A DNA stretch of 64,000 bases from Myxococcota bacterium. Its GTDB lineage: Bacteria > Myxococcota_A > UBA9160 > UBA4427. Shown one piece after another: positions 2,143 to 12,354 of this stretch. The stretch's first letter is position 1; every line of letters begins with the position of its first letter. The translations under genes and the position numbers were made by a program. The stretch is taken from the NCBI GenBank assembly GCA_965250285.1, contig OZ252299.1:2112001-2176000 (forward strand). The letters run 5' to 3'. The notes beneath the pieces are model-generated. The model was not told the origin of the DNA and ran no database searches. It saw only the letters and a list, made by a program, of their open reading frames with translations.

Positions 2143-3006
2143 TCAGGGAGCGGCCGTGGCGCCCTGCCGGGCGCCATCGACGTCGACATCGACCACGATC
2201 GCGCTGTGGTCGCTGCCCGGCACGTGGACGACCCGGAAGTCGTCGACCTCGACGCCATCGATCATCGCATGGTCGATCCGCAGCAGACGCGGCGATCCAG
2301 ACCAGGGGCCCCAGGTATTGCGGGGCCGCTCGCCCTGGCGACGGGCCACGAGCGAGGCTGCGTCGCTCAGGTGCGCAGCGATGCGGCGGTAGACGGGCCA
2401 GACCGGCGTCGCATTGAAGTCGCCGACGAGCACCCGCTGCGTGGGCCCGCGGCGTCGCCCGAGCCAAGGCACCAGATCTCGCATCTGGCGCACGCGGAGC
2501 GCCAGACCGAGCCGGGGGCGCATCGTGTGTGGCGCGGCCATATGCAGATTCGCCAGTTCGAGGGGCATCGAGAGGTCGGGCCACTCACCGGGGTCGAGGG
2601 TGGCCACGCGGAGATCTCGGCAGGCGAGCGGCACGCGATGGATCTTGGCGGGACGCCTGAGCGCGATGCCCATCCCCGTGAAGTGCTCGTCGGGATGCAG
2701 CTCGCCGTGGGGCATGACCCGGGCGAGCGCGTCGGCCTGAGCGGGCGTCAGCTCCTGAACGCAGACGGCATCGACCGCGAGCGCCGCCACCAGATCGGCG
2801 AAGGCCTCGGGATCGGCGCCGCCGTTCCAGAGGTTGGCAGACAGAATGCGAATCGACTGGCCCAACGGCGGCTCGGCTCCAGGTGAGAGGCGGCGGCGGC
2901 CCGTCGTTTGCGGTGCGACCACGCCCCTCCGCTCGAATCGACCACGCCGCGCGCCAACTGAAGCGCAAAGCCAGGCAGGATGCTCGGGCGAGGACTTCGT
3001 CGGCAT
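2143..3006 (-). CDS. Endonuclease/exonuclease/phosphatase (EEP) family protein; start uncertain
   Basis: Motifs ILSANL, VCVQEL, LVGDFNA, RIDH, GSDH. Confidence 0.85.
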   Translation of the reverse strand: MPTKSSPEHPAWLCASVGARRGRFERRGVVAPQTTGRRRLSPGAEPPLGQSIRILSANLWNGGADPEAFADLVAALAVDAVCVQELTPAQADALARVMPHGELHPDEHFTGMGIALRRPAKIHRVPLACRDLRVATLDPGEWPDLSMPLELANLHMAAPHTMRPRLGLALRVRQMRDLVPWLGRRRGPTQRVLVGDFNATPVWPVYRRIAAHLSDAASLVARRQGERPRNTWGPWSGSPRLLRIDHAMIDGVEVDDFRVVHVPGSDHSAIVVDVDVDGARQGATAAP

Positions 3007-3054
3007 GAGCGCACCGCGCGTGCACGCCACCCACCATCGATGCGCGGCCCCCCA

Positions 3055-3726
3055 CTAGGCGGCGACGTGCTCGCGCAGCCAGTCGTGCACCGGGAGCAGT
3101 CGTTTCATCCGGGTGGCACACCAGCCGACGAAGGCAGGCTTCGCGATGCTGGCGGGGAGCGGCTCCATGAAGCGCACCTGAAAGCCATTCATCCGCAGCA
3201 GCTCCTCGCGCGGATGATCGGCGGGCCAGGGGGCTGGCACCTTCTTGAGCATCTCACCGGCGGTCTCGCAACGACCCGCCCGTGCCCCCTTCTGCACGCG
3301 CCCGATCGCCTTCACGAGTGCTTGGCCGGGCCGCCCGCCGACGGCTTCTCGCCAGCGCGCACGCGCCTTCGTGTCGAAGCTCATGCCGCTCGCGAAGCCA
3401 ACGCCGTCGGCGTCGAGCCGCAGCCACAGGATCGGCGCCGTCTTCTTGTCGCGGCCCGACCACGTCGTGAGAAGCAGATGATCCTTGTACCGCGGGGTGT
3501 CGGCCTTCGCGAAGCGCAGATCCCGGTGCAGCGGCGAGACCGACGACCGGCGCACGACCGTGAGCTCGGCATCCAGCCGGTCGGCCAGCGCTTCGATGAG
3601 ATCACCGCCGGGGTCGACCAAGTCGCGCTTCAAGCGCTGCTTCACTGCGGCGTAGGCCTTCGCATCGAAGTCGGGCAGCGTGCGCAGCTGGGCCAACACG
3701 GTCGGGTCGAAGCCTTCGAACGGCAT
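3055..3726 (-). CDS. DUF2461 family protein
   Basis: MPFEGF start; RDLRFAKADTPRYKDH motif; LKKVP...ADHPREELLR. Confidence 0.75.
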   Translation of the reverse strand: MPFEGFDPTVLAQLRTLPDFDAKAYAAVKQRLKRDLVDPGGDLIEALADRLDAELTVVRRSSVSPLHRDLRFAKADTPRYKDHLLLTTWSGRDKKTAPILWLRLDADGVGFASGMSFDTKARARWREAVGGRPGQALVKAIGRVQKGARAGRCETAGEMLKKVPAPWPADHPREELLRMNGFQVRFMEPLPASIAKPAFVGWCATRMKRLLPVHDWLREHVAA

Positions 3727-4217
3727 GGCACGCCTCCGGGTCTTGCTCGCATCGGCGCCCACGCGGCGCGGCGGGTCGGCTCGGGTGAACTCGCAGAGCC
3801 CCCCCCCGGCGTCGGCGATGGCTCGAACCGAAGCTACCCCGCCGCTGCAACCGGCGGACCTTGCGCCACGCGACCGAGGCCGACGCTCACCGTGCGACTC
3901 GACGCGCGGCTGTTTCGCAGCGATCGAATTCGTCGTCAGCGTGTCCCGGTCGGGCGGCGCACGGTCGCGTCGTCCCGATTCGAACGCAGTCTCACGCAGG
4001 GCACCGGGTCGACAACCCTACAAACGGCCGTTGCATGCGACGCGGGGGCCCCGCCTGATCGCGGCCCGCATCGCTGAGACGCTCGACGCGCTGACTCTCG
4101 ACGCCTTAGAGTCTGATTGTTTTCACCCACGCCGACTTTCTCTGATCCGATGCTCCATGCGATCTTCCGCCGCGCGCATTCGCAAAGAATTCGGTCCCCA
4201 CGTGGAAGGAAGCCGCC

Positions 4218-5261
4218 TTGTCCCAGCCCGCCGAGCACGGTCCCAGCCAGAACCGCACCGCCCCGCGCGCCAACAGCGGCGGCGACATGCGGACGGCCCT
4301 CGACGACTACTACGTGATGAAGGAGCTCGACGCCGATCAGCGGCCCGACGAGAAGGTCGAGGCGCAGCCGAATCTCGTCTCGCGCTACTACGACGTCGTC
4401 ACCCAGTTCTACGAGTACGCCTGGGGGCAGAGCTTCCACTTCTCGCCGCGCCAACCGGGCGAGAACCTCAAGACCTCACAGCGTCGCCAGGAGGAAGGGG
4501 TCGGCGAGCTCCTGCGCCTGAAGCCCGGCATGAAGGTCGCCGACATCGGCTGCGGCGTCGGTGGGCCGCTGGTGACGATCGGCAAGGCGACGGGAGCGAG
4601 CATCACGGGGCTCAACTTCAACGAGCACCAGATTGCACGCGGCCAGCAGATGGTGCGCAAGGCCGGGCTCGACGGCACGTGCGGCTTCCTGCTCGCGAAC
4701 TTCATGGACGTCCCGCTCGAAGACGGGCATTTCGACGCGATCTACTCGTTCGAAGCGATCTGCCACGCGCCCGATACCGGGCTGCTCTTCAAGGAGCTGT
4801 TCCGGCTGCTCAAGCCCGGCGGCGAGATCGCTGCGGTCGACTGGTGCCTGACCGAGCAGTTCGACGCGAGCAACCCCAAGCACGTCGACATTCGCGACCG
4901 CATCGAGTTCGCGAACGCGACGCCCGACCTGCTCACGCCCCAGCAGCAGCTCGACACGATGAAGGGCGCCGGGTTCGAGATCCTCTCCGCAACCGACCAG
5001 GCGGCGCAGAGCCATGCCGACACGCCCTGGTACATGGCGCTGCAGGGCCGCGACGTGTCGCTGGCCTCGCTGGCTCGTATCCCGGCCGGTCGAAGCTTCA
5101 CTTCGGGCGTGACATCGTTGCTCGAGAAGCTGCGCATCGCCCCGCCCGGCACGAGCGAGGCAGCGCAGCTGCTCAACGTCGCTGCCGACTCGCTCGTCGA
5201 AGGCGGCCAGCTCGGCCTCTTCACGCCGAGCTTCCTGGTCCATGCGCGAAAGCCCGAGTAG
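4218..5261 (+). CDS. Sterol C-24 methyltransferase (SMT/Erg6-like, SAM-dependent); TTG start, alternative ATG at 4287
   Basis: Region I FYEYAWGQSFHF, region II ADIGCGVGGP, region III YSFEAICHAP, region IV LKPGG, and SMT C-terminal LVEGGQLGLFTPSFLVHARKP. Confidence 0.9.
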   Translation: MSQPAEHGPSQNRTAPRANSGGDMRTALDDYYVMKELDADQRPDEKVEAQPNLVSRYYDVVTQFYEYAWGQSFHFSPRQPGENLKTSQRRQEEGVGELLRLKPGMKVADIGCGVGGPLVTIGKATGASITGLNFNEHQIARGQQMVRKAGLDGTCGFLLANFMDVPLEDGHFDAIYSFEAICHAPDTGLLFKELFRLLKPGGEIAAVDWCLTEQFDASNPKHVDIRDRIEFANATPDLLTPQQQLDTMKGAGFEILSATDQAAQSHADTPWYMALQGRDVSLASLARIPAGRSFTSGVTSLLEKLRIAPPGTSEAAQLLNVAADSLVEGGQLGLFTPSFLVHARKPE

Positions 5262-5273
5262 CGGAGAACCGGC

Positions 5274-6374
5274 TTGACCGAGGCCCGAGAGACCGACCGC
5301 GGCGCGGCACGCGACCACGATGTCCTGATCGTCGGCGGCGGCCCCGCCGGATCGACGTGTGCGCGGTTCGCAGTGCAGCACGGGCTCGACGTCGCCGTCG
5401 TCGAGCGCACGGGCATTCGACCGCCGAAGCACACGAGCGCTGGCATCTTCGATCACACCTGGAAGGCGCTCGAACTCTCGCCCGACGACTACCCGCACGC
5501 CATGCGGGCGCCGCACGCGTTCGAGTTCACGACGCTCAAGGATCGAGAGCAGCTCCCCGACGTGGTGCAGATCGTCGCGCCGAAGCTCAAGCGCCACGCG
5601 TACTTCCCCAACCGGGACGAGTTCGACATCTGGCTGCTCGAGCAGGCGCAGAAGTCGGGGGCGCTGGTCGTCCACGACGAGGTGGTGCGTCCGCACGACA
5701 TCGAACACGTGGAGAGCGACGCGGGGCACCGGTATCACGTGCGTGTCGGTCAAGAGGTGCACACCGCGCGCGTGCTGGTCGGCGCAGCGGGCACGCGTTG
5801 TCCGGTCTATCGCAAGTTCTTCGAGACCAGCGCGGGATGGCCCGGCCAGACCATGCTGCTGACCGAGGTCGAGGCACCCGAGAGCGAGTATCGGGGCCCG
5901 GCCTACGCGAGCTACTTCGGCTTCGCGAGCCCGGACGTGTTCGCCTGGACGTACGTCGTCGGCGATGGTCGCGTCCACATCGGCACGGCCGCGATTTCGA
6001 CCGAGAAGTCGACCAAGAAGGACATGCGCTTCGACGAGTTCCTCGACTTCCTGAAGGACGAGGACTACGTCGACCCCGACTTCGAGCCCAAGGATCATCA
6101 CACGAGCGGCGGCTCGATTCGCATGTTCGCGAAGTCCCCGATGGGTGTGCTGGACGGCACCTGCCATGTGATCGGCGATGCGGCCGGGCTACTCCAGTGC
6201 GACGCGTACAACGGCATCACGAACGCGATCCTCTCGGGCCGGCTGTGCGCCGACGCGATCGCGAAGGGCCAGCGTGAGCCGAAGCTGCGCAAGAAGCTGA
6301 ACCCGTACCTGTTCCAGGACGTGCTCCGCGACATGCTGAGCGGTCCGCTTCCGTTCCTGCGAAGATTCAAGTAG
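5274..6374 (+). CDS. FAD-dependent oxidoreductase, geranylgeranyl reductase family
   Basis: DVLIVGGGPAGS dinucleotide motif, RDEFD, IGDAAG...GITNAILSG. Confidence 0.85.
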   Translation: MTEARETDRGAARDHDVLIVGGGPAGSTCARFAVQHGLDVAVVERTGIRPPKHTSAGIFDHTWKALELSPDDYPHAMRAPHAFEFTTLKDREQLPDVVQIVAPKLKRHAYFPNRDEFDIWLLEQAQKSGALVVHDEVVRPHDIEHVESDAGHRYHVRVGQEVHTARVLVGAAGTRCPVYRKFFETSAGWPGQTMLLTEVEAPESEYRGPAYASYFGFASPDVFAWTYVVGDGRVHIGTAAISTEKSTKKDMRFDEFLDFLKDEDYVDPDFEPKDHHTSGGSIRMFAKSPMGVLDGTCHVIGDAAGLLQCDAYNGITNAILSGRLCADAIAKGQREPKLRKKLNPYLFQDVLRDMLSGPLPFLRRFK

Positions 6375-6410
6375 CGCCGGCCCCTCACACGGAGGTCCCT
6401 GCCCCCCGCC

Positions 6411-7607
6411 ATGCTCGACAAGCTCCTGCCTCGTCCGCTCAAGAAGCGCCGATCGAAGAAGCGCACGTCGGAAGCCGTCCGTCTCGACAGCTACCCGCCG
6501 CCGTACCCCGACGGCTGGTATCGACTGATGAACACCGACGACCTGGCGCCGGGCGAGGCCACGTACGTCGAGGCGCTCGGTCGCGAGCTGGTCGTTTGGC
6601 GAAGCGAAGACGGCGCCCGGCTCTCGGCCATGACCGCTTTCTGCCCCCATGTCGGGGCCAACCTCGCGCACGGCCAGGTCAGAGGCGATCGCATCGTCTG
6701 CCCGTTCCACGCGTGGGAGCTCACGGGCGACGGCCGCGTCGCCTGCGTGCCCTACAGCGACTCGACCCCGGGCCGCGCCCTCAACGAGAGCTTCCCCGTC
6801 GAGGACGTCCACGGCCAGGTCTTCGTCTATCACCGAGGCGGCGAGCGGCAGTCGAGCAGCGAAGCGCCGCCCTACCCGCCGCCCCGCATCCCCGACGTCG
6901 ACGCCGGCGACTTCGTGTACCGCGGCCAGTACGACGCCGGGCGCGTGCACATGCACATCATCGAGTTCGCCGAGAACAGCGTCGACTTTGCGCACTTCGA
7001 TCCGATCCACAGCCAGCTGCGGGTGCCGTGGACGAACGTCCCGATCCCCGGCTTCGAGATCGAACACATCGCCGGCTGGGAGCTCGACGAGGAGCGCCCG
7101 CACGTCAGCTACTTTCTCGACGAGGCCCGCGTCCACGCGTTCGGGCGGCCGCTCGAGAAGGCGAGCGCCAGCGCCGTTGCCACCTTCACCGGCCCGGGCA
7201 GCGTCGTGAACTTCCGCTTCGACATCCCCGACCTCGGCAAGATGGAGCTCATGCAGACGCACCTGCCTGTGGGGCCGCTCGAGCAGCAGGTGAACTTCCG
7301 CTGGTTCTCCGATCCGAAGATTCCGCGACCCGTTTCGTGGTACATCGTCGGCAACTGGATCAGTCAGTGGAAGCAGGACATCGACATCTGGGAGAACAAG
7401 GTCTACCTCGATCGCCCGATGCTCTCGAAGGACGACGGCCCGGTGCAGCGCATGCGGCGCTGGTACAAACAGTTCTACCCCGAGACGTCCCCTGTCGACC
7501 CGATGCCGGTGCGCCGCATCGGCCGCGAAGCCGATCGCGACGGAGCGCCGCAGCCCGCGAGCGACGCCGCCACCGCCGCCGCGCCCATCTCGGCGAGAAA
7601 GAGCTGA
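6411..7607 (+). CDS. Rieske non-heme iron oxygenase, Neverland/DAF-36 (sterol 7-desaturase)/KshA-like
   Basis: PPPYPDGWY; Rieske CPH...CPFH; mononuclear Fe motif ENSVDFAHFDPIH; C-terminal DIDIWENK...RRWYKQFY. Confidence 0.85.
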   Translation: MLDKLLPRPLKKRRSKKRTSEAVRLDSYPPPYPDGWYRLMNTDDLAPGEATYVEALGRELVVWRSEDGARLSAMTAFCPHVGANLAHGQVRGDRIVCPFHAWELTGDGRVACVPYSDSTPGRALNESFPVEDVHGQVFVYHRGGERQSSSEAPPYPPPRIPDVDAGDFVYRGQYDAGRVHMHIIEFAENSVDFAHFDPIHSQLRVPWTNVPIPGFEIEHIAGWELDEERPHVSYFLDEARVHAFGRPLEKASASAVATFTGPGSVVNFRFDIPDLGKMELMQTHLPVGPLEQQVNFRWFSDPKIPRPVSWYIVGNWISQWKQDIDIWENKVYLDRPMLSKDDGPVQRMRRWYKQFYPETSPVDPMPVRRIGREADRDGAPQPASDAATAAAPISARKS

Positions 7608-7609
7608 AC

Positions 7610-9049
7610 GTGGCCGCCACGACCGTTTCCGATTTCACCCAGCCGGCTTCGGCCTCTCGTCACCCGTGGCTTCGCCCCTGGGAGCGTCTGGTCGTGAAGC
7701 TCCGCAAGGGCCTCGGCCTCGCGCTGACGATCAACTTTCTGATTTTCTGGGCGGTGCCGATCTACGTGATGGGCGAGTCGTTCAACCGCTTTCTCCACTA
7801 CCTCTTGCGCCCAATCTACAACCTCGTCGACCGCAGCCCGCGCATTCGCACCTTCGCGCGCGAGCACGTCTACCGAAAAGAGGTCCACACCGACTACTTC
7901 GCGACGGCGCTCTTCTTCACCGCCGGCGCGGTGATCGCCCTGACGACGCTCTTCACCGTCCAGATCACGACGGGCGGACTGCCCTGGTGGCTGGTCGCGG
8001 CGTACTTCTTCTCGTGGGTCGGCTTCGGCGGTCGCGGCATGGGCGCGGCCTACACGTTCGCCCACCGCGAGGGCCACCTCGCCGGCGGCCGGATGTACAA
8101 GCCGTGGATCCGCGACCACATCGGCAATTTCTTCGAGAACTGGGGGGGCGTCTTCTACGGCGGGGTCCCGTACAACTTCTCGACGTCGCACAATCTGCTG
8201 CACCACCGCCTGAATGCCGGCAAGGGCGACCCCTTCTACATGTGGGATTTCGACCGAACCGACTTCTGGGGGCTGATGCTCTACCAATGGCGGATCTTCG
8301 TCTACATGACAGGCTGGAGCAGCCTGAAGGAGTTCCGCAAGCAACGCGACGTCAAGCGAATGGACGAGGCCTACCGCACGCTGCGCAAGGGCGCGCTGAT
8401 CTTCTGGGTGGCGACACCGTCGGTGATCCTCACGCTGCTGCTCGCCACGGGCAGCTCGCTGGGCGCAGCGCTGCTCTTCCTGTTCTTCGTGTGGTTCCAG
8501 CCGCTCTGCGCGATGTCGTTCTTTCTCGCGACGCTCAACATCGGCTTCCATGGCCTGATCGAGTTCGACGAGAACGGGCGCCACATCGAGTGCATCGCGG
8601 GCAGCACGATCCTCGGCGGCAAGGACGACTCGTTCGGCGAAGACGACCACATGGCCCATCACTACTTTGGCAACGTCGAGCACCGCGACCTGCCCGCGCA
8701 CCAGCACGACCAGGAGTCGCTCTGGGCCCGACACCACGCCACCGTCTTCAAGGAGCTCTCGATCATCGAGCTCGGCATCTTCATCCACTTCGGGCTGTGG
8801 GACATGCTGCTCGACAAGCACTACGTCGACTTTGCGGGCGATCTCAGCCGCGACGAGCTCAAGGCGCTGCTTCAAGCACGCGCCGAGCGCACCGAAATGG
8901 ACTACGAGGACTACGAATTCAGGTATCTACCGAACCTGCGCTCGACCGCACGTGAGCTCGTGCGCCGAGGCGTCTGCGAGACCGAGAACAAGGCCTACAT
9001 CTACCAGGCGCACCACAACGTGCAGTTCGATCTCAGCGTACCGAGCTGA
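7610..9049 (+). CDS. Membrane di-iron desaturase/hydroxylase (fatty acid desaturase superfamily), 479 aa
   Basis: His boxes HREGH, HNLLHH, HMAHH; several TM helices; GTG 2 bp after upstream stop. Confidence 0.8.
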   Translation: MAATTVSDFTQPASASRHPWLRPWERLVVKLRKGLGLALTINFLIFWAVPIYVMGESFNRFLHYLLRPIYNLVDRSPRIRTFAREHVYRKEVHTDYFATALFFTAGAVIALTTLFTVQITTGGLPWWLVAAYFFSWVGFGGRGMGAAYTFAHREGHLAGGRMYKPWIRDHIGNFFENWGGVFYGGVPYNFSTSHNLLHHRLNAGKGDPFYMWDFDRTDFWGLMLYQWRIFVYMTGWSSLKEFRKQRDVKRMDEAYRTLRKGALIFWVATPSVILTLLLATGSSLGAALLFLFFVWFQPLCAMSFFLATLNIGFHGLIEFDENGRHIECIAGSTILGGKDDSFGEDDHMAHHYFGNVEHRDLPAHQHDQESLWARHHATVFKELSIIELGIFIHFGLWDMLLDKHYVDFAGDLSRDELKALLQARAERTEMDYEDYEFRYLPNLRSTARELVRRGVCETENKAYIYQAHHNVQFDLSVPS

Positions 9050-9097
9050 GTCTCAGGCCGGCCGCGGGACCACGCGCGCAGGTCGCGGGCACCTCGC

Positions 9098-10762
9098 CTA
9101 GGGCACGACCACGACGCCGTTTGCGCCGGGCGACTGCCCGGCTCCGCCCGACAGGTCGGTCTCGCCCCGAGATGCCGTTGCGGCAGCGATCGTGAGGTCT
9201 CCACCATCGCCACCGGCGGAGGCGAGCCGCTCGGGATCGCTGTTGCCACCGCTGAGATCGATCGCCGATCGCACGACGACGCGGCCCGATGCCTCGATCT
9301 CGTCGCTGCCGGCGGCGATCATCAGGTCACCGGCGTTCGAGCCGATGCGCGCTCCGTCTCCCCCCGACGTCGTGACTCGGTCGAAGCCGAGCCAGCGGAT
9401 CGACTGGCCGGTGGAGCCGTGGTCGTTGCGGATCATCGCCGCCACGCTGCCGCCGACGCCACCACGCGCAGTCGTATCGGCCACTGCAGAACCCCCGCCC
9501 ACGTAGACGCCGCCCGATACGGTGATGTCGCCGGCGCGCGGATCACCGGGGTCGACCAGCTCGTTGGTCTCGAAGTCGACGCGACCGCCACGGCCACCCT
9601 GAGCCGTCGGGCTCGCCGTCGAGCGGCCGCCATCCGCCCACAGGGCCCCACGGCTTCGAATCTCTCCGCCATGCGCCTCGAACGAGATGCGCCCGCCCTC
9701 GCCGCCGGGCCCGCCGGGCGAGGGGCCGCCGCGGCTCGTCAGCGACGCATCGTTCAGGATGCTGCCCCCGAGCAGCGCTCGCATCCACACGCGGCCACCG
9801 ATCCCGCCGAGATCGATCCCGTTGCCGCCCGAAGCGTCGATCGGGGCTGCGTTCAGGATCTGCTGATCGGCCACGAGCGTGACATCGGCCCCGGCTCCCC
9901 CGGTGCCCGAGGCCCCCGTACTCGCGCCGCCCCGAGCCCGGATCGCGCCGCGATTGCCGATCCAGCCCATCTCGTCGATCCCCTGGGCCGTCATCGTGAC
10001 GGCACCCGCGGCGCCGCCAGCGCCGCTCGACTGCGCGGCACCGTAGGACGAGATCGTGCCGAGGTTGATCAGCGCGCCGCCGGCCGTCAGATCGACGGCC
10101 CCACCCGCCTGACCCGGCTCGATGCCGTGCGCCTCGACGACGCCGTCGCCGATGTAGTTGCGCGCGGTGGTGATGCTGATCGATCCACGCTGGGTCGCAT
10201 CGACGTCGAGCACGGTGATCACGCCGTCGTTGATGACGTCTTGGCTGAAGACGAGCGCTGCGCCGGTGCCGACGTTGAGGGGCAGGGTCAGCGTGGCCCC
10301 ACGGACGACCTCGATGCCCGTCGCGATCGGGTCATCGGCATAGTTGGTATCGCCGTTCGAGATGCGAATCACCGTCTCGCCTTGCGGGATGTAGAGCGAC
10401 GTGTCGGGCAGCGTCTCACCCGGTGCGAGGATCCACAGCTCGAGATCCTCATCGATCACGATGCGAACCGGCCCGTACTCGGCCGCCGGGATCAAGAAGT
10501 CGAAGCCGGCGTCGGCGGCCCCGGAGTCGAGGATCTCGATGGCCGAGCCAGCGGTGCCGTCGGCGATCGTCACGTCGACGTTGCCGCCCATGGCACCGGC
10601 CTGCTCGATCTCGCCATTCGACCCGCTGCCGCCGCTCGTGTCGACGAGCACTTCAGTCACGCCGCCGCCGCCCTTGCAGCCGACGGCCGCGACCCAGACA
10701 GAGGTGAAGGCGACCGCGGCCAGGCGCGCCGCGCGCTGGCTCGTCGTGTGATTCCGGCCCAT
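9098..10762 (-). CDS. Glycine-rich repeat lipoprotein
   Basis: GAGGAG RBS; signal ending AAVG-C; ~9 repeats of IxNxxxIxAxGG...GGxGGxVxLxA. Confidence 0.75.
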   Translation of the reverse strand: MGRNHTTSQRAARLAAVAFTSVWVAAVGCKGGGGVTEVLVDTSGGSGSNGEIEQAGAMGGNVDVTIADGTAGSAIEILDSGAADAGFDFLIPAAEYGPVRIVIDEDLELWILAPGETLPDTSLYIPQGETVIRISNGDTNYADDPIATGIEVVRGATLTLPLNVGTGAALVFSQDVINDGVITVLDVDATQRGSISITTARNYIGDGVVEAHGIEPGQAGGAVDLTAGGALINLGTISSYGAAQSSGAGGAAGAVTMTAQGIDEMGWIGNRGAIRARGGASTGASGTGGAGADVTLVADQQILNAAPIDASGGNGIDLGGIGGRVWMRALLGGSILNDASLTSRGGPSPGGPGGEGGRISFEAHGGEIRSRGALWADGGRSTASPTAQGGRGGRVDFETNELVDPGDPRAGDITVSGGVYVGGGSAVADTTARGGVGGSVAAMIRNDHGSTGQSIRWLGFDRVTTSGGDGARIGSNAGDLMIAAGSDEIEASGRVVVRSAIDLSGGNSDPERLASAGGDGGDLTIAAATASRGETDLSGGAGQSPGANGVVVVP

Positions 10763-11058: not shown

Positions 11059-12350
<1,292 letters not shown>

Positions 12351-12354
<4 letters not shown>

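Follow-up and report, generated by a model that had tools for sequence, protein, structure and literature searches.

Located at positions 4218..5261 (+ strand) of the 64,000-nucleotide (nt) stretch of DNA analysed here, hereafter the window, a gene of the sterol C-24 methyltransferase (SMT) family opens a four-gene operon in the genome of a Myxococcota bacterium (GTDB lineage Myxococcota_A; UBA9160; UBA4427; GenBank assembly GCA_965250285.1, contig OZ252299.1, positions 2,112,001 to 2,176,000 of the forward strand). Judged from its sequence, the enzyme belongs to a bacterial clade and, somewhat more likely than not, methylates the side-chain double bond of sterols acquired from outside once or twice. 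They would have to be acquired because neither a cyclase nor a squalene synthase gene was detected in the genome. Both bacterial SMTs and the idea of a bacterium methylating host sterols without an oxidosqualene cyclase (OSC) are already known (PMC10070321). The motif variant of the SMT is ordinary in its clade, and the interesting part is the cassette. No description of the association of an SMT with a Rieske oxygenase, of the four-gene cassette or of the high share of SMT-bearing genomes devoid of OSC was found in the open-access papers searched.

The SMT reading frame runs through 347 codons without any internal stop from a TTG at 4218, and its GC3 of 0.90 matches that of real neighbouring genes in a genome of 69% GC. 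This TTG is a plausible start, credible because a Shine-Dalgarno-like sequence, GGAAGGAAG, lies 5-13 nt upstream (4205-4213) and because homologues of other phyla share the N-terminal 'ANSGG' stretch; the alternative ATG at 4287 would give a protein of 324 amino acids (aa). Behind a class-I S-adenosylmethionine (SAM) methyltransferase domain, the protein carries the Sterol_MT_C domain (Pfam PF08498; residues 290-347, 5085..5258, +) with an E-value of 1e-20 and 74 bits for a cut-off of 21.7. Methyltransf_11, _25 and _31 all score above their Pfam cut-offs, and no NCBIfam model of another methyltransferase family comes near its cut-off. A word-indexed search retrieved 730 homologues, and an exhaustive HMMER search against 1.84 billion cluster representatives retrieved 329 clusters (50% identity) at E<=1e-30, the top homologue having an E-value of 6e-206. 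By these sequence scores, the match to the SMT family is far beyond chance.

The protein was aligned with the named Erg6 of Cladosporium, with SMTs of Spizellomyces, Zancudomyces and Mesostigma and with an SMT1-like protein of Oryza, four fungi being included in total. Region I, FYEYAWGQSFHF, occupies residues 64-75 (4407..4442, +) and Region III, AICHAP, residues 180-185 (4755..4772, +), with Ile where eukaryotic SMTs have Thr; both strings, including the YEYAW of Region I, had been reported in the initial annotation and are found in the translation. The aromatic motif of Region I (Y81, W85, G86, F89, H90 and F91 in yeast numbering) is present as Y65, W69, G70, F73, H74 and F75, and Y65 and Y67 correspond to yeast positions 81 and 83. 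The DxGxGxxGP of Region II, E195 and G217 are present as D109, G111, G113, G116, P117, E179 and G201, E179 standing directly before AICHAP. Of the 25 residues that Brown & Welander (2025, bioRxiv 10.64898/2025.12.19.695621) give as conserved in every functional SMT, 24 are retained here, i.e., in yeast numbering, Y74, T78, W85, G86, F89, H90, F91, DxGxGxxGP, G147, Q154, D189, E195, G217, G268, W286, G333, L341, G352, F357 and P359. The sole change is that of G84 to Ala68 (codon 4419-4421, +; position equated by alignment with named fungal Erg6). Conservation of Gly84 is an empirical feature of assayed SMTs and lies outside the Pfam definition. Yeast position 249 corresponds to Asn233 (codon 4914..4916, +), which aligns with D257 of the Cladosporium Erg6, whose numbering is that of yeast plus 8 at Region I; the anchors G217 and G268 flank this position with the same offset, and the Asp of Cladosporium at the aligned position 249 agrees with the yeast residue given in the preprint. 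The presence of all SMT signature regions and of the C-terminal domain, as initially annotated, is thus borne out by Pfam and by the alignment with named SMTs, and the protein belongs to the Erg6/SMT family.

The protein had also been described as a eukaryote-type enzyme, rare in bacteria, and neither description is supported. An IQ-TREE phylogeny of 112 SMTs (loci L001, L084, L085, L087, L089 and L069 and matches shorter than 285 residues being excluded) places it among named SMTs, within a clade of 49 rows with an SH-aLRT support of 99. Every row of this clade comes from a bacterial metagenome-assembled genome (MAG) or from a metagenome, labelled Acidobacteriota, Chloroflexota, Gammaproteobacteria or 'Spirochaetaceae', and the nine named eukaryotic SMTs all fall outside it. 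The deep branches of the tree are weakly supported, as in Brown et al. (PMC10070321). A grouping with tocopherol or other methyltransferases, evoked beforehand as what would argue against an SMT, is not seen, since the protein groups with SMTs and its best 120 homologues (62-94% identity) all carry PF08498. Furthermore, at least 502 encoding loci were found in species-representative prokaryote genomes and 510 in JGI metagenomes, and NCBI labels some of these relatives as 'sterol 24-C-methyltransferase family protein'.

Compared with eukaryotic ERG6, SMT1 and SMT2, the protein is homologous over its full length, with 36-48% identity to cluster representatives, and no large gaps interrupt the alignment of Regions I-IV or of the C-terminal domain. 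However, it branches outside the eukaryotic groups, has a shorter N-terminus, reads YEYAW instead of YEYGW or YEWGW and AICHAP instead of ATCHAP, and is fed by no endogenous sterol pathway. With the assayed bacterial SMTs from sponge symbionts, Sandaracinus, Nitrospira and Chlamydiae (PMC10070321; bioRxiv 10.64898/2025.12.19.695621), it shares the Pfam architecture, the 24 residues and a bacterial origin; it differs from them by Ala84 where they have Gly, by N249, Y81 and Y83 without a propylation signature, and by a context made of genes for a Rieske oxygenase, a Cys-less flavoprotein and a His-box protein instead of erg or sdmAB genes. Such bacterial enzymes methylate desmosterol and 24-methylenecholesterol in vitro (8/10 of those from sponge symbionts and 12/14 of the environmental ones; PMC10070321). 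The same paper reports, in a Chlamydiae MAG, an SMT that is the only sterol gene and whose proposed substrates are host sterols, a situation comparable to that of the window. Two members of the 49-row clade are located on LXNJ01001611 and LXNI01009375, contigs that share their accession prefixes with the sponge metagenomes of Petrosia ficiformis (LXNJ) and Sarcotragus foetidus (LXNI) listed in Supplementary Table 4 of PMC10070321. None of the contigs tested in 2023 is among the 510 metagenome loci. LXNI01016685 (L098), 44% identical to the SMT of the window, was retrieved by the metagenome scan and belongs to another clade; its SMT is inactive according to bioRxiv 10.64898/2025.12.19.695621.

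Among 40 relatives of the host, a close copy of the SMT (90% identity) was found only in the genome of the same genus. Within the taxonomic family of the window, the other SMTs are the two of genome G015 (46% and 41% identity), and genomes G006 and G009 have methyltransferase matches of 30-32% identity. Same genus aside, the closest relatives of the SMT sit in other phyla and are nearer to it than are those of G015, which indicates horizontal transfer.

The substitutions that had initially been singled out, YEYAW and AICHAP, are not unusual in this clade. Over 121 sequences (the protein of the window and its 120 nearest cluster representatives), position 84 is occupied by Ala in 61 cases, 60 without the window, and by Gly in the other 60, while xAICHAP, found in 54/121 (53/120 without the window), is the commonest form of Region III. 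On a FastTree phylogeny of 125 sequences, position 84 switched between Gly and Ala at least 11 times, which fits a near-neutral swap of two small residues. The YEYAW variant is therefore a common and repeatedly arising feature of its bacterial clade, and SMT homology is not in doubt, as the substitution flips and both residues occur among the homologues. Ala84 is rarer among the species-representative loci, where it was seen in L004, L012, L016, L024 and L043. A link between Ala84 and the absence of OSC was considered and rejected: genomes of the Ala84 loci L012, L016 and L024 have OSC-like genes and those of L043, L004 and the window have none. Every SMT assayed in the preprint keeps Gly84 (bioRxiv 10.64898/2025.12.19.695621), and no Ala84 enzyme is reported as assayed in the cited papers.

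In that preprint, mutagenesis reveals that positions 81, 83 and 249 matter for the number of methylation rounds. Gly249 is necessary for the formation of 24-isopropyl sterols, all the propylating SMTs have Phe at 81 and/or 83, and a G249N mutant retained the production of C28 and C29 sterols (bioRxiv 10.64898/2025.12.19.695621). The SMT of the window does not show this combination of Gly249 with Phe81 and/or Phe83, since it reads Y81, Y83 and N249; it is therefore predicted, by analogy with mutants of another enzyme, to methylate once or twice and not to propylate.

The genome of the window consists of a single contig of 6.25 Mb, estimated to be 95.4% complete, and contains one Sterol_MT_C gene. 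Searches for the squalene-hopene cyclase domains SQHop_cyclase_C and SQHop_cyclase_N (PF13243, PF13249) and for the models TIGR01787 and TIGR03463 gave no match in this genome; SQS_PSY (squalene synthase) gave none either, and nothing scored above the cut-off for the squalene epoxidase domain. Using a squalene-hopene cyclase (SHC) and an OSC fusion from other SMT-bearing genomes as queries, tblastn found nothing better than an E-value of 1.6 in it, an unrelated match to the FAD domain of the fusion aside. As far as homology can tell, de novo synthesis of sterols, hopanoids and squalene is thus not encoded in this genome. Nor was a cyclase found in the sister genome of the same genus, which is 83% complete, and 3/24 genomes of the family have OSC-like genes (G013, G015 and, partially, G012).

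This situation is widespread among bacteria that carry SMTs. Thirty-three other SMT-bearing genomes were sampled from the 80 listed loci of the genome scan, chromosome-level records and Ala84 loci being favoured and completeness not being reported. Their TIGR03463 scores are bimodal: nine genomes have an OSC-like gene scoring 692-772 bits, to which G073 with a split gene can be added, 11 have only SHC-like genes and 12 have nothing. An OSC-like gene is therefore present in 10/33 and absent from 23/33, and orphan SMTs are common. High-scoring PF13243 matches were first candidates for OSCs but were rejected, three of them being squalene-hopene cyclases according to NCBIfam; TIGR03463 separates both kinds. 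In the SMT clade with 43-47% identity to that of the window, which comes mostly from Dehalococcoidia/Chloroflexota (G065-G072; L049, L050, L057, L062, L064, L067, L075 and L083), none of the eight genomes has an OSC-like gene and four have only SHC-like ones.

The SMT is the first gene of an operon that continues, on the same strand, with genes encoding a flavoprotein with the fold of geranylgeranyl reductases (GGRs; 5274..6374, 366 aa, 12 nt past the SMT stop), a KshA-like Rieske non-haem iron oxygenase (6411..7607, 398 aa) and a membrane protein with His boxes that resembles fatty-acid desaturases (7610..9049). The gaps between them are 12, 36 and 2 nt, and genes on the opposite strand border the operon on both sides. 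The same four genes are syntenic in the same-genus MAG, with 87-90% identity. A scan of positions 3900-9400 for sigma-70-like consensus sequences gave no promoter-like site, and the two weak terminator-like sites found in this interval are both inside genes.

The Rieske protein combines a Rieske domain (Pfam, 8e-20) with a KshA_C domain (PF19298; 3.5e-26, 93 bits). Its CxH...CxxH cluster (CPH...CPFH), CPHVGANLAHGQVRGDRIVCPFH, and its non-haem iron E/DxxxDxxHxxxxH motif, ENSVDFAHFDPIH, are both intact. Its closest PDB match is KshA, the oxygenase of 3-ketosteroid 9-alpha-hydroxylase, with which it shares both domains and the metal motifs over the full length; at about 2.5e-38 it is nevertheless a distant relative and not an orthologue, and the operon contains no reductase partner. 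Its Atlas neighbours include clusters named KshA and a Myxococcota cluster labelled 'cholesterol 7-desaturase family'. An identity with SdmA, the sterol C-4 methyl oxidase, was rejected, as the NF052579 model scores 42.6 bits for a cut-off of 600 and matches only the N-terminal part.

Adjacency of SMT and Rieske genes recurs across phyla. Among 41 loci of the SMT clade with at least 56% identity, a Rieske orthologue follows the SMT within 500 nt in 25, and L004 makes a 26th, with the flavoprotein gene inserted between both; in the remaining ones, it is found 3-7 kb downstream (two loci) or is not in the locus (13 loci). The Rieske gene also follows a 41%-identical SMT in L088 and SMTs on two metagenome contigs, and in L006, L009 and L018 the SMT-Rieske pair stands alone amid unrelated genes. 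At the genome scale, Rieske orthologues occur in 16/34 SMT-bearing genomes (E<=1e-60). Four of the 40 relatives have one (at least 46% identity), three of these having an SMT or an OSC-like gene. In G051, the orthologue is about 30 kb from the OSC-like gene. A Dehalococcoidia chromosome (in L011; G003:C1:326370-334361) carries two Rieske orthologues (53% and 52% identity) 7-14 kb from its SMT. In the genome of the window itself (G000:C1), four KshA-like paralogues, 27-33% identical, are located around 2871000, 4107000, 1808000 and 2619000.

The flavoprotein scores 103.6 bits with TIGR02032 for a cut-off of 158.8 (NCBIfam), 44 bits with MenJ and 55 with QhpG; in the alignment to PDB 3OZ2, Thr stands at the catalytic Cys of GGRs (Cys47 in the archaeal enzyme), and FAWTYV takes the place of YxWxFP. 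Bsr, a member of the GGR family, is the proven sterol C-24 reductase of the Myxococcota Sandaracinus amylolyticus (PMC12004948), which makes a sterol role of a GGR-fold enzyme plausible. By its fold, the flavoprotein is, like Bsr, a probable FAD protein of the GGR superfamily; its gene adjoins that of a sterol side-chain enzyme and its genome is likely of Myxococcota. However, the Cys shared by Bsr and GGRs aligns with its Thr, TIGR02032 is under the cut-off and none of the OSC-bearing relatives yielded a homologue; its identification as Bsr was therefore rejected on the replacement of the Cys and of the YxWxFP motif. The weak scores with the models of the flavin monooxygenases QhpG and LodB suggest that it may oxidise rather than reduce its substrate.

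The fourth protein has the boxes HREGH, HNLLHH and HMAHH and hydrophobic segments. PF00487 (FA_desaturase) gives 27.8 bits for a cut-off of 29.7, and the Atlas feature score to FA_desaturase clusters is 0.94. Its start is uncertain, with candidates from the GTG at 7610, 2 nt past the Rieske stop, up to the ATG at 7769. The open reading frame (ORF) 7666-8955 was considered as the fourth gene and rejected as an Arg-rich wrong frame, the real gene being in the frame of 7610-9049. Among the sampled genomes, the flavoprotein and the His-box protein are confined to the genus of the window, with one exception: a P. ficiformis metagenome contig (L110) carries a fragment of the His-box protein (51% identity) beside a 43%-identical SMT.

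Given that no endogenous pathway was detected, the SMT would use SAM to methylate C-24 of a delta-24 or delta-24(28) sterol coming from a host, from prey or from the environment. With Y, Y and N at positions 81, 83 and 249, it would form a C28 or perhaps a C29 sterol, but no 24-isopropyl sterol. The co-transcribed Rieske oxygenase, flavoprotein and His-box enzyme may work on the same sterol; these partners might, for example, make the side-chain double bond for the SMT and process the methylene product. A bolder proposal, which we regard as tentative and rather doubtful, is that the four genes constitute a self-contained, horizontally spread cassette for sterol side-chain remodelling in a non-producer. 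The oxygenase or desaturase would install the double bond in acquired C27 sterols, the Ala84 SMT would add its methyl group there and processing of the methylene product would fall to the Cys-less flavoprotein, giving 24-alkylated C28/C29 sterols; more broadly, most bacterial SMTs would edit the sterols of other organisms instead of taking part in bacterial sterol synthesis, 23/33 of the sampled genomes being without OSC.

Several observations weigh against the use of acquired sterols by this SMT and its partners. A completeness of 95.4% makes the absence of genes strong but not absolute, no system for the uptake of sterols was recognised, and activity of the Ala84 subclade would be an extrapolation from Gly84 enzymes. 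Both the Cys and the Pro of the GGR/Bsr motifs are missing from the flavoprotein, and a relative of it (E<=1e-20) was not found in 33/34 other SMT-bearing genomes. The His-box protein, below the Pfam cut-off, appears to belong to the fatty-acid desaturase superfamily (PF00487) and not to the family of sterol desaturases (PF04116). Lastly, a Rieske orthologue was not found in 18/34 SMT-bearing genomes (E<=1e-60) and genome G027 has one without SMT or OSC; coupling of SMT and Rieske is therefore not obligatory.

The same partners could also serve a chemistry without sterols. Methylenation followed by reduction is a route to branched lipids, as in the formation of tuberculostearic acid by BfaAB. 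By analogy, the protein could be an alkene C-methyltransferase with the SMT fold acting on a polyprenyl or on an unsaturated acyl or alkyl lipid, the desaturase-like enzyme making the double bond and the flavoprotein processing the methylene. The lack of squalene, hopanoid and sterol synthesis by homology would be expected in this case, and the partners seem to fall in the isoprenoid-reductase and fatty-acid-desaturase superfamilies instead of canonical sterol enzyme families; the Gly84 kept by all the assayed SMTs is Ala here, and the Dehalococcoidia-type clade has no OSC-like gene in its eight sampled genomes. This is nonetheless unlikely. The Sterol_MT_C domain is intact and, save for G84, the residues of functional SMTs are kept, including the aromatic sterol-binding Region I. 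The repeated flips at position 84 within one clade make it less likely that this residue marks a switch of substrate class. Moreover, the Rieske partner is nearest to the steroid-acting KshA and its orthologues track genomes with OSC or SMT, while Gly84 members of the clade occur in genomes with an OSC-like gene (G002, G059 and G063).

The gene could also be only a horizontally acquired passenger, catalytically dead or without function in its host. Its patchy spread, with a close copy in a single one of the 40 relatives, the location of its closest relatives in other phyla and the deviation at G84 are in line with such a fate. It is, however, improbable for an intact ORF whose GC3 is like that of host genes, that is 90% identical in a sister genome where the order of the four genes is kept, that retains all the residues of the SAM-binding and catalytic regions and whose start/stop spacing with its neighbour is tight, as is typical of co-translated operons. 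The least probable explanation is a de novo sterol maker whose cyclase was missed, either non-homologous or lying in the roughly 5% of the genome that is unassembled or mis-assembled: the completeness below 100%, the OSC-like genes of the same family and those of 10/33 other SMT-bearing genomes leave some room for it, but the assembly is a single contig, four HMMs and tblastn gave no cyclase, three independent steps would need to have been missed since squalene epoxidase and squalene synthase are also absent, and the second genome of the genus shows none either.

Side-chain alkylated steranes serve as eukaryote fossils, and 24-isopropylcholestane as a sponge fossil, a use which bacterial SMTs already complicate. 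The present analysis adds that an abundant subclade of SMTs has Ala in place of the otherwise invariant Gly84, none of its members being reported as assayed in the cited papers; that these SMTs are recurrently accompanied by a KshA-like Rieske oxygenase; and that SMT genes are often located in genomes without sterol synthesis, which points to the editing of sterols from hosts, prey or the environment and not to de novo synthesis. If the cassette does convert C27 sterols into C28/C29 sterols, non-producing bacteria could alter sterol inventories in hosts and sediments. In the same way, if bacterial SMTs act as editors, precursors of 24-alkyl steranes could come from the bacterial reworking of eukaryotic cholesterol-type sterols. 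Were the SMT just an ordinary C28-forming enzyme, this would be a matter of routine annotation. The SMT-Rieske pair, the cassette and the share of genomes without OSC are leads and not demonstrations.

Some relatives deserve mention in their own right. G015, a member of the family of the window, has an OSC-like gene, two SMTs and a Rieske orthologue, and a cytochrome P450 gene directly precedes its 46%-identical SMT (L086, G015:C515:18455-22423); it looks like a genuine sterol producer beside the OSC-less genus of the window. An ORF of 1132 aa fuses an FAD-monooxygenase domain to an OSC-like domain (NCBIfam). In L093 (G004:C1:1943500-1949500), ORF 2605-6000 (-) encodes an N-terminal UbiH-like FAD monooxygenase and a C-terminal OSC-like part (TIGR03463, 716 bits). 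Similar fusion ORFs of about 1130-1160 aa occur in G047, G048, G049, G051, G015, G013 and G037, which are SMT-bearing and Myxococcota-type genomes, and these proteins may be squalene epoxidase-cyclase fusions. The split OSC-like gene of G073 (C2:1981162-1983074) consists of three pieces in succession that differ in frame (295, 263 and 224 bits), reflecting a pseudogene or assembly errors. On a Longimicrobiales chromosome whose genome has an OSC-like gene, the SMT match of L069 (10297-10971) covers only 225 residues without Region I and is possibly truncated.

Upstream of the operon, the intergenic region 4018..4217 that holds the Shine-Dalgarno-like sequence separates the SMT from a divergent DUF2461 gene (3055-4017; Pfam). 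Further downstream, the window encodes the adenylosuccinate synthase PurA (11059-12354, -), whose relatives are mostly labelled Myxococcota. Among its 120 best matches, eight bear organism names, i.e., five of Myxococcota, one combining Spirochaetaceae and Myxococc-, one of Proteobacteria and one of Deltaproteobacteria. Public records title the same-genus MAG (L004) 'uncultured Spirochaetaceae bacterium', probably under a wrong taxonomic label.

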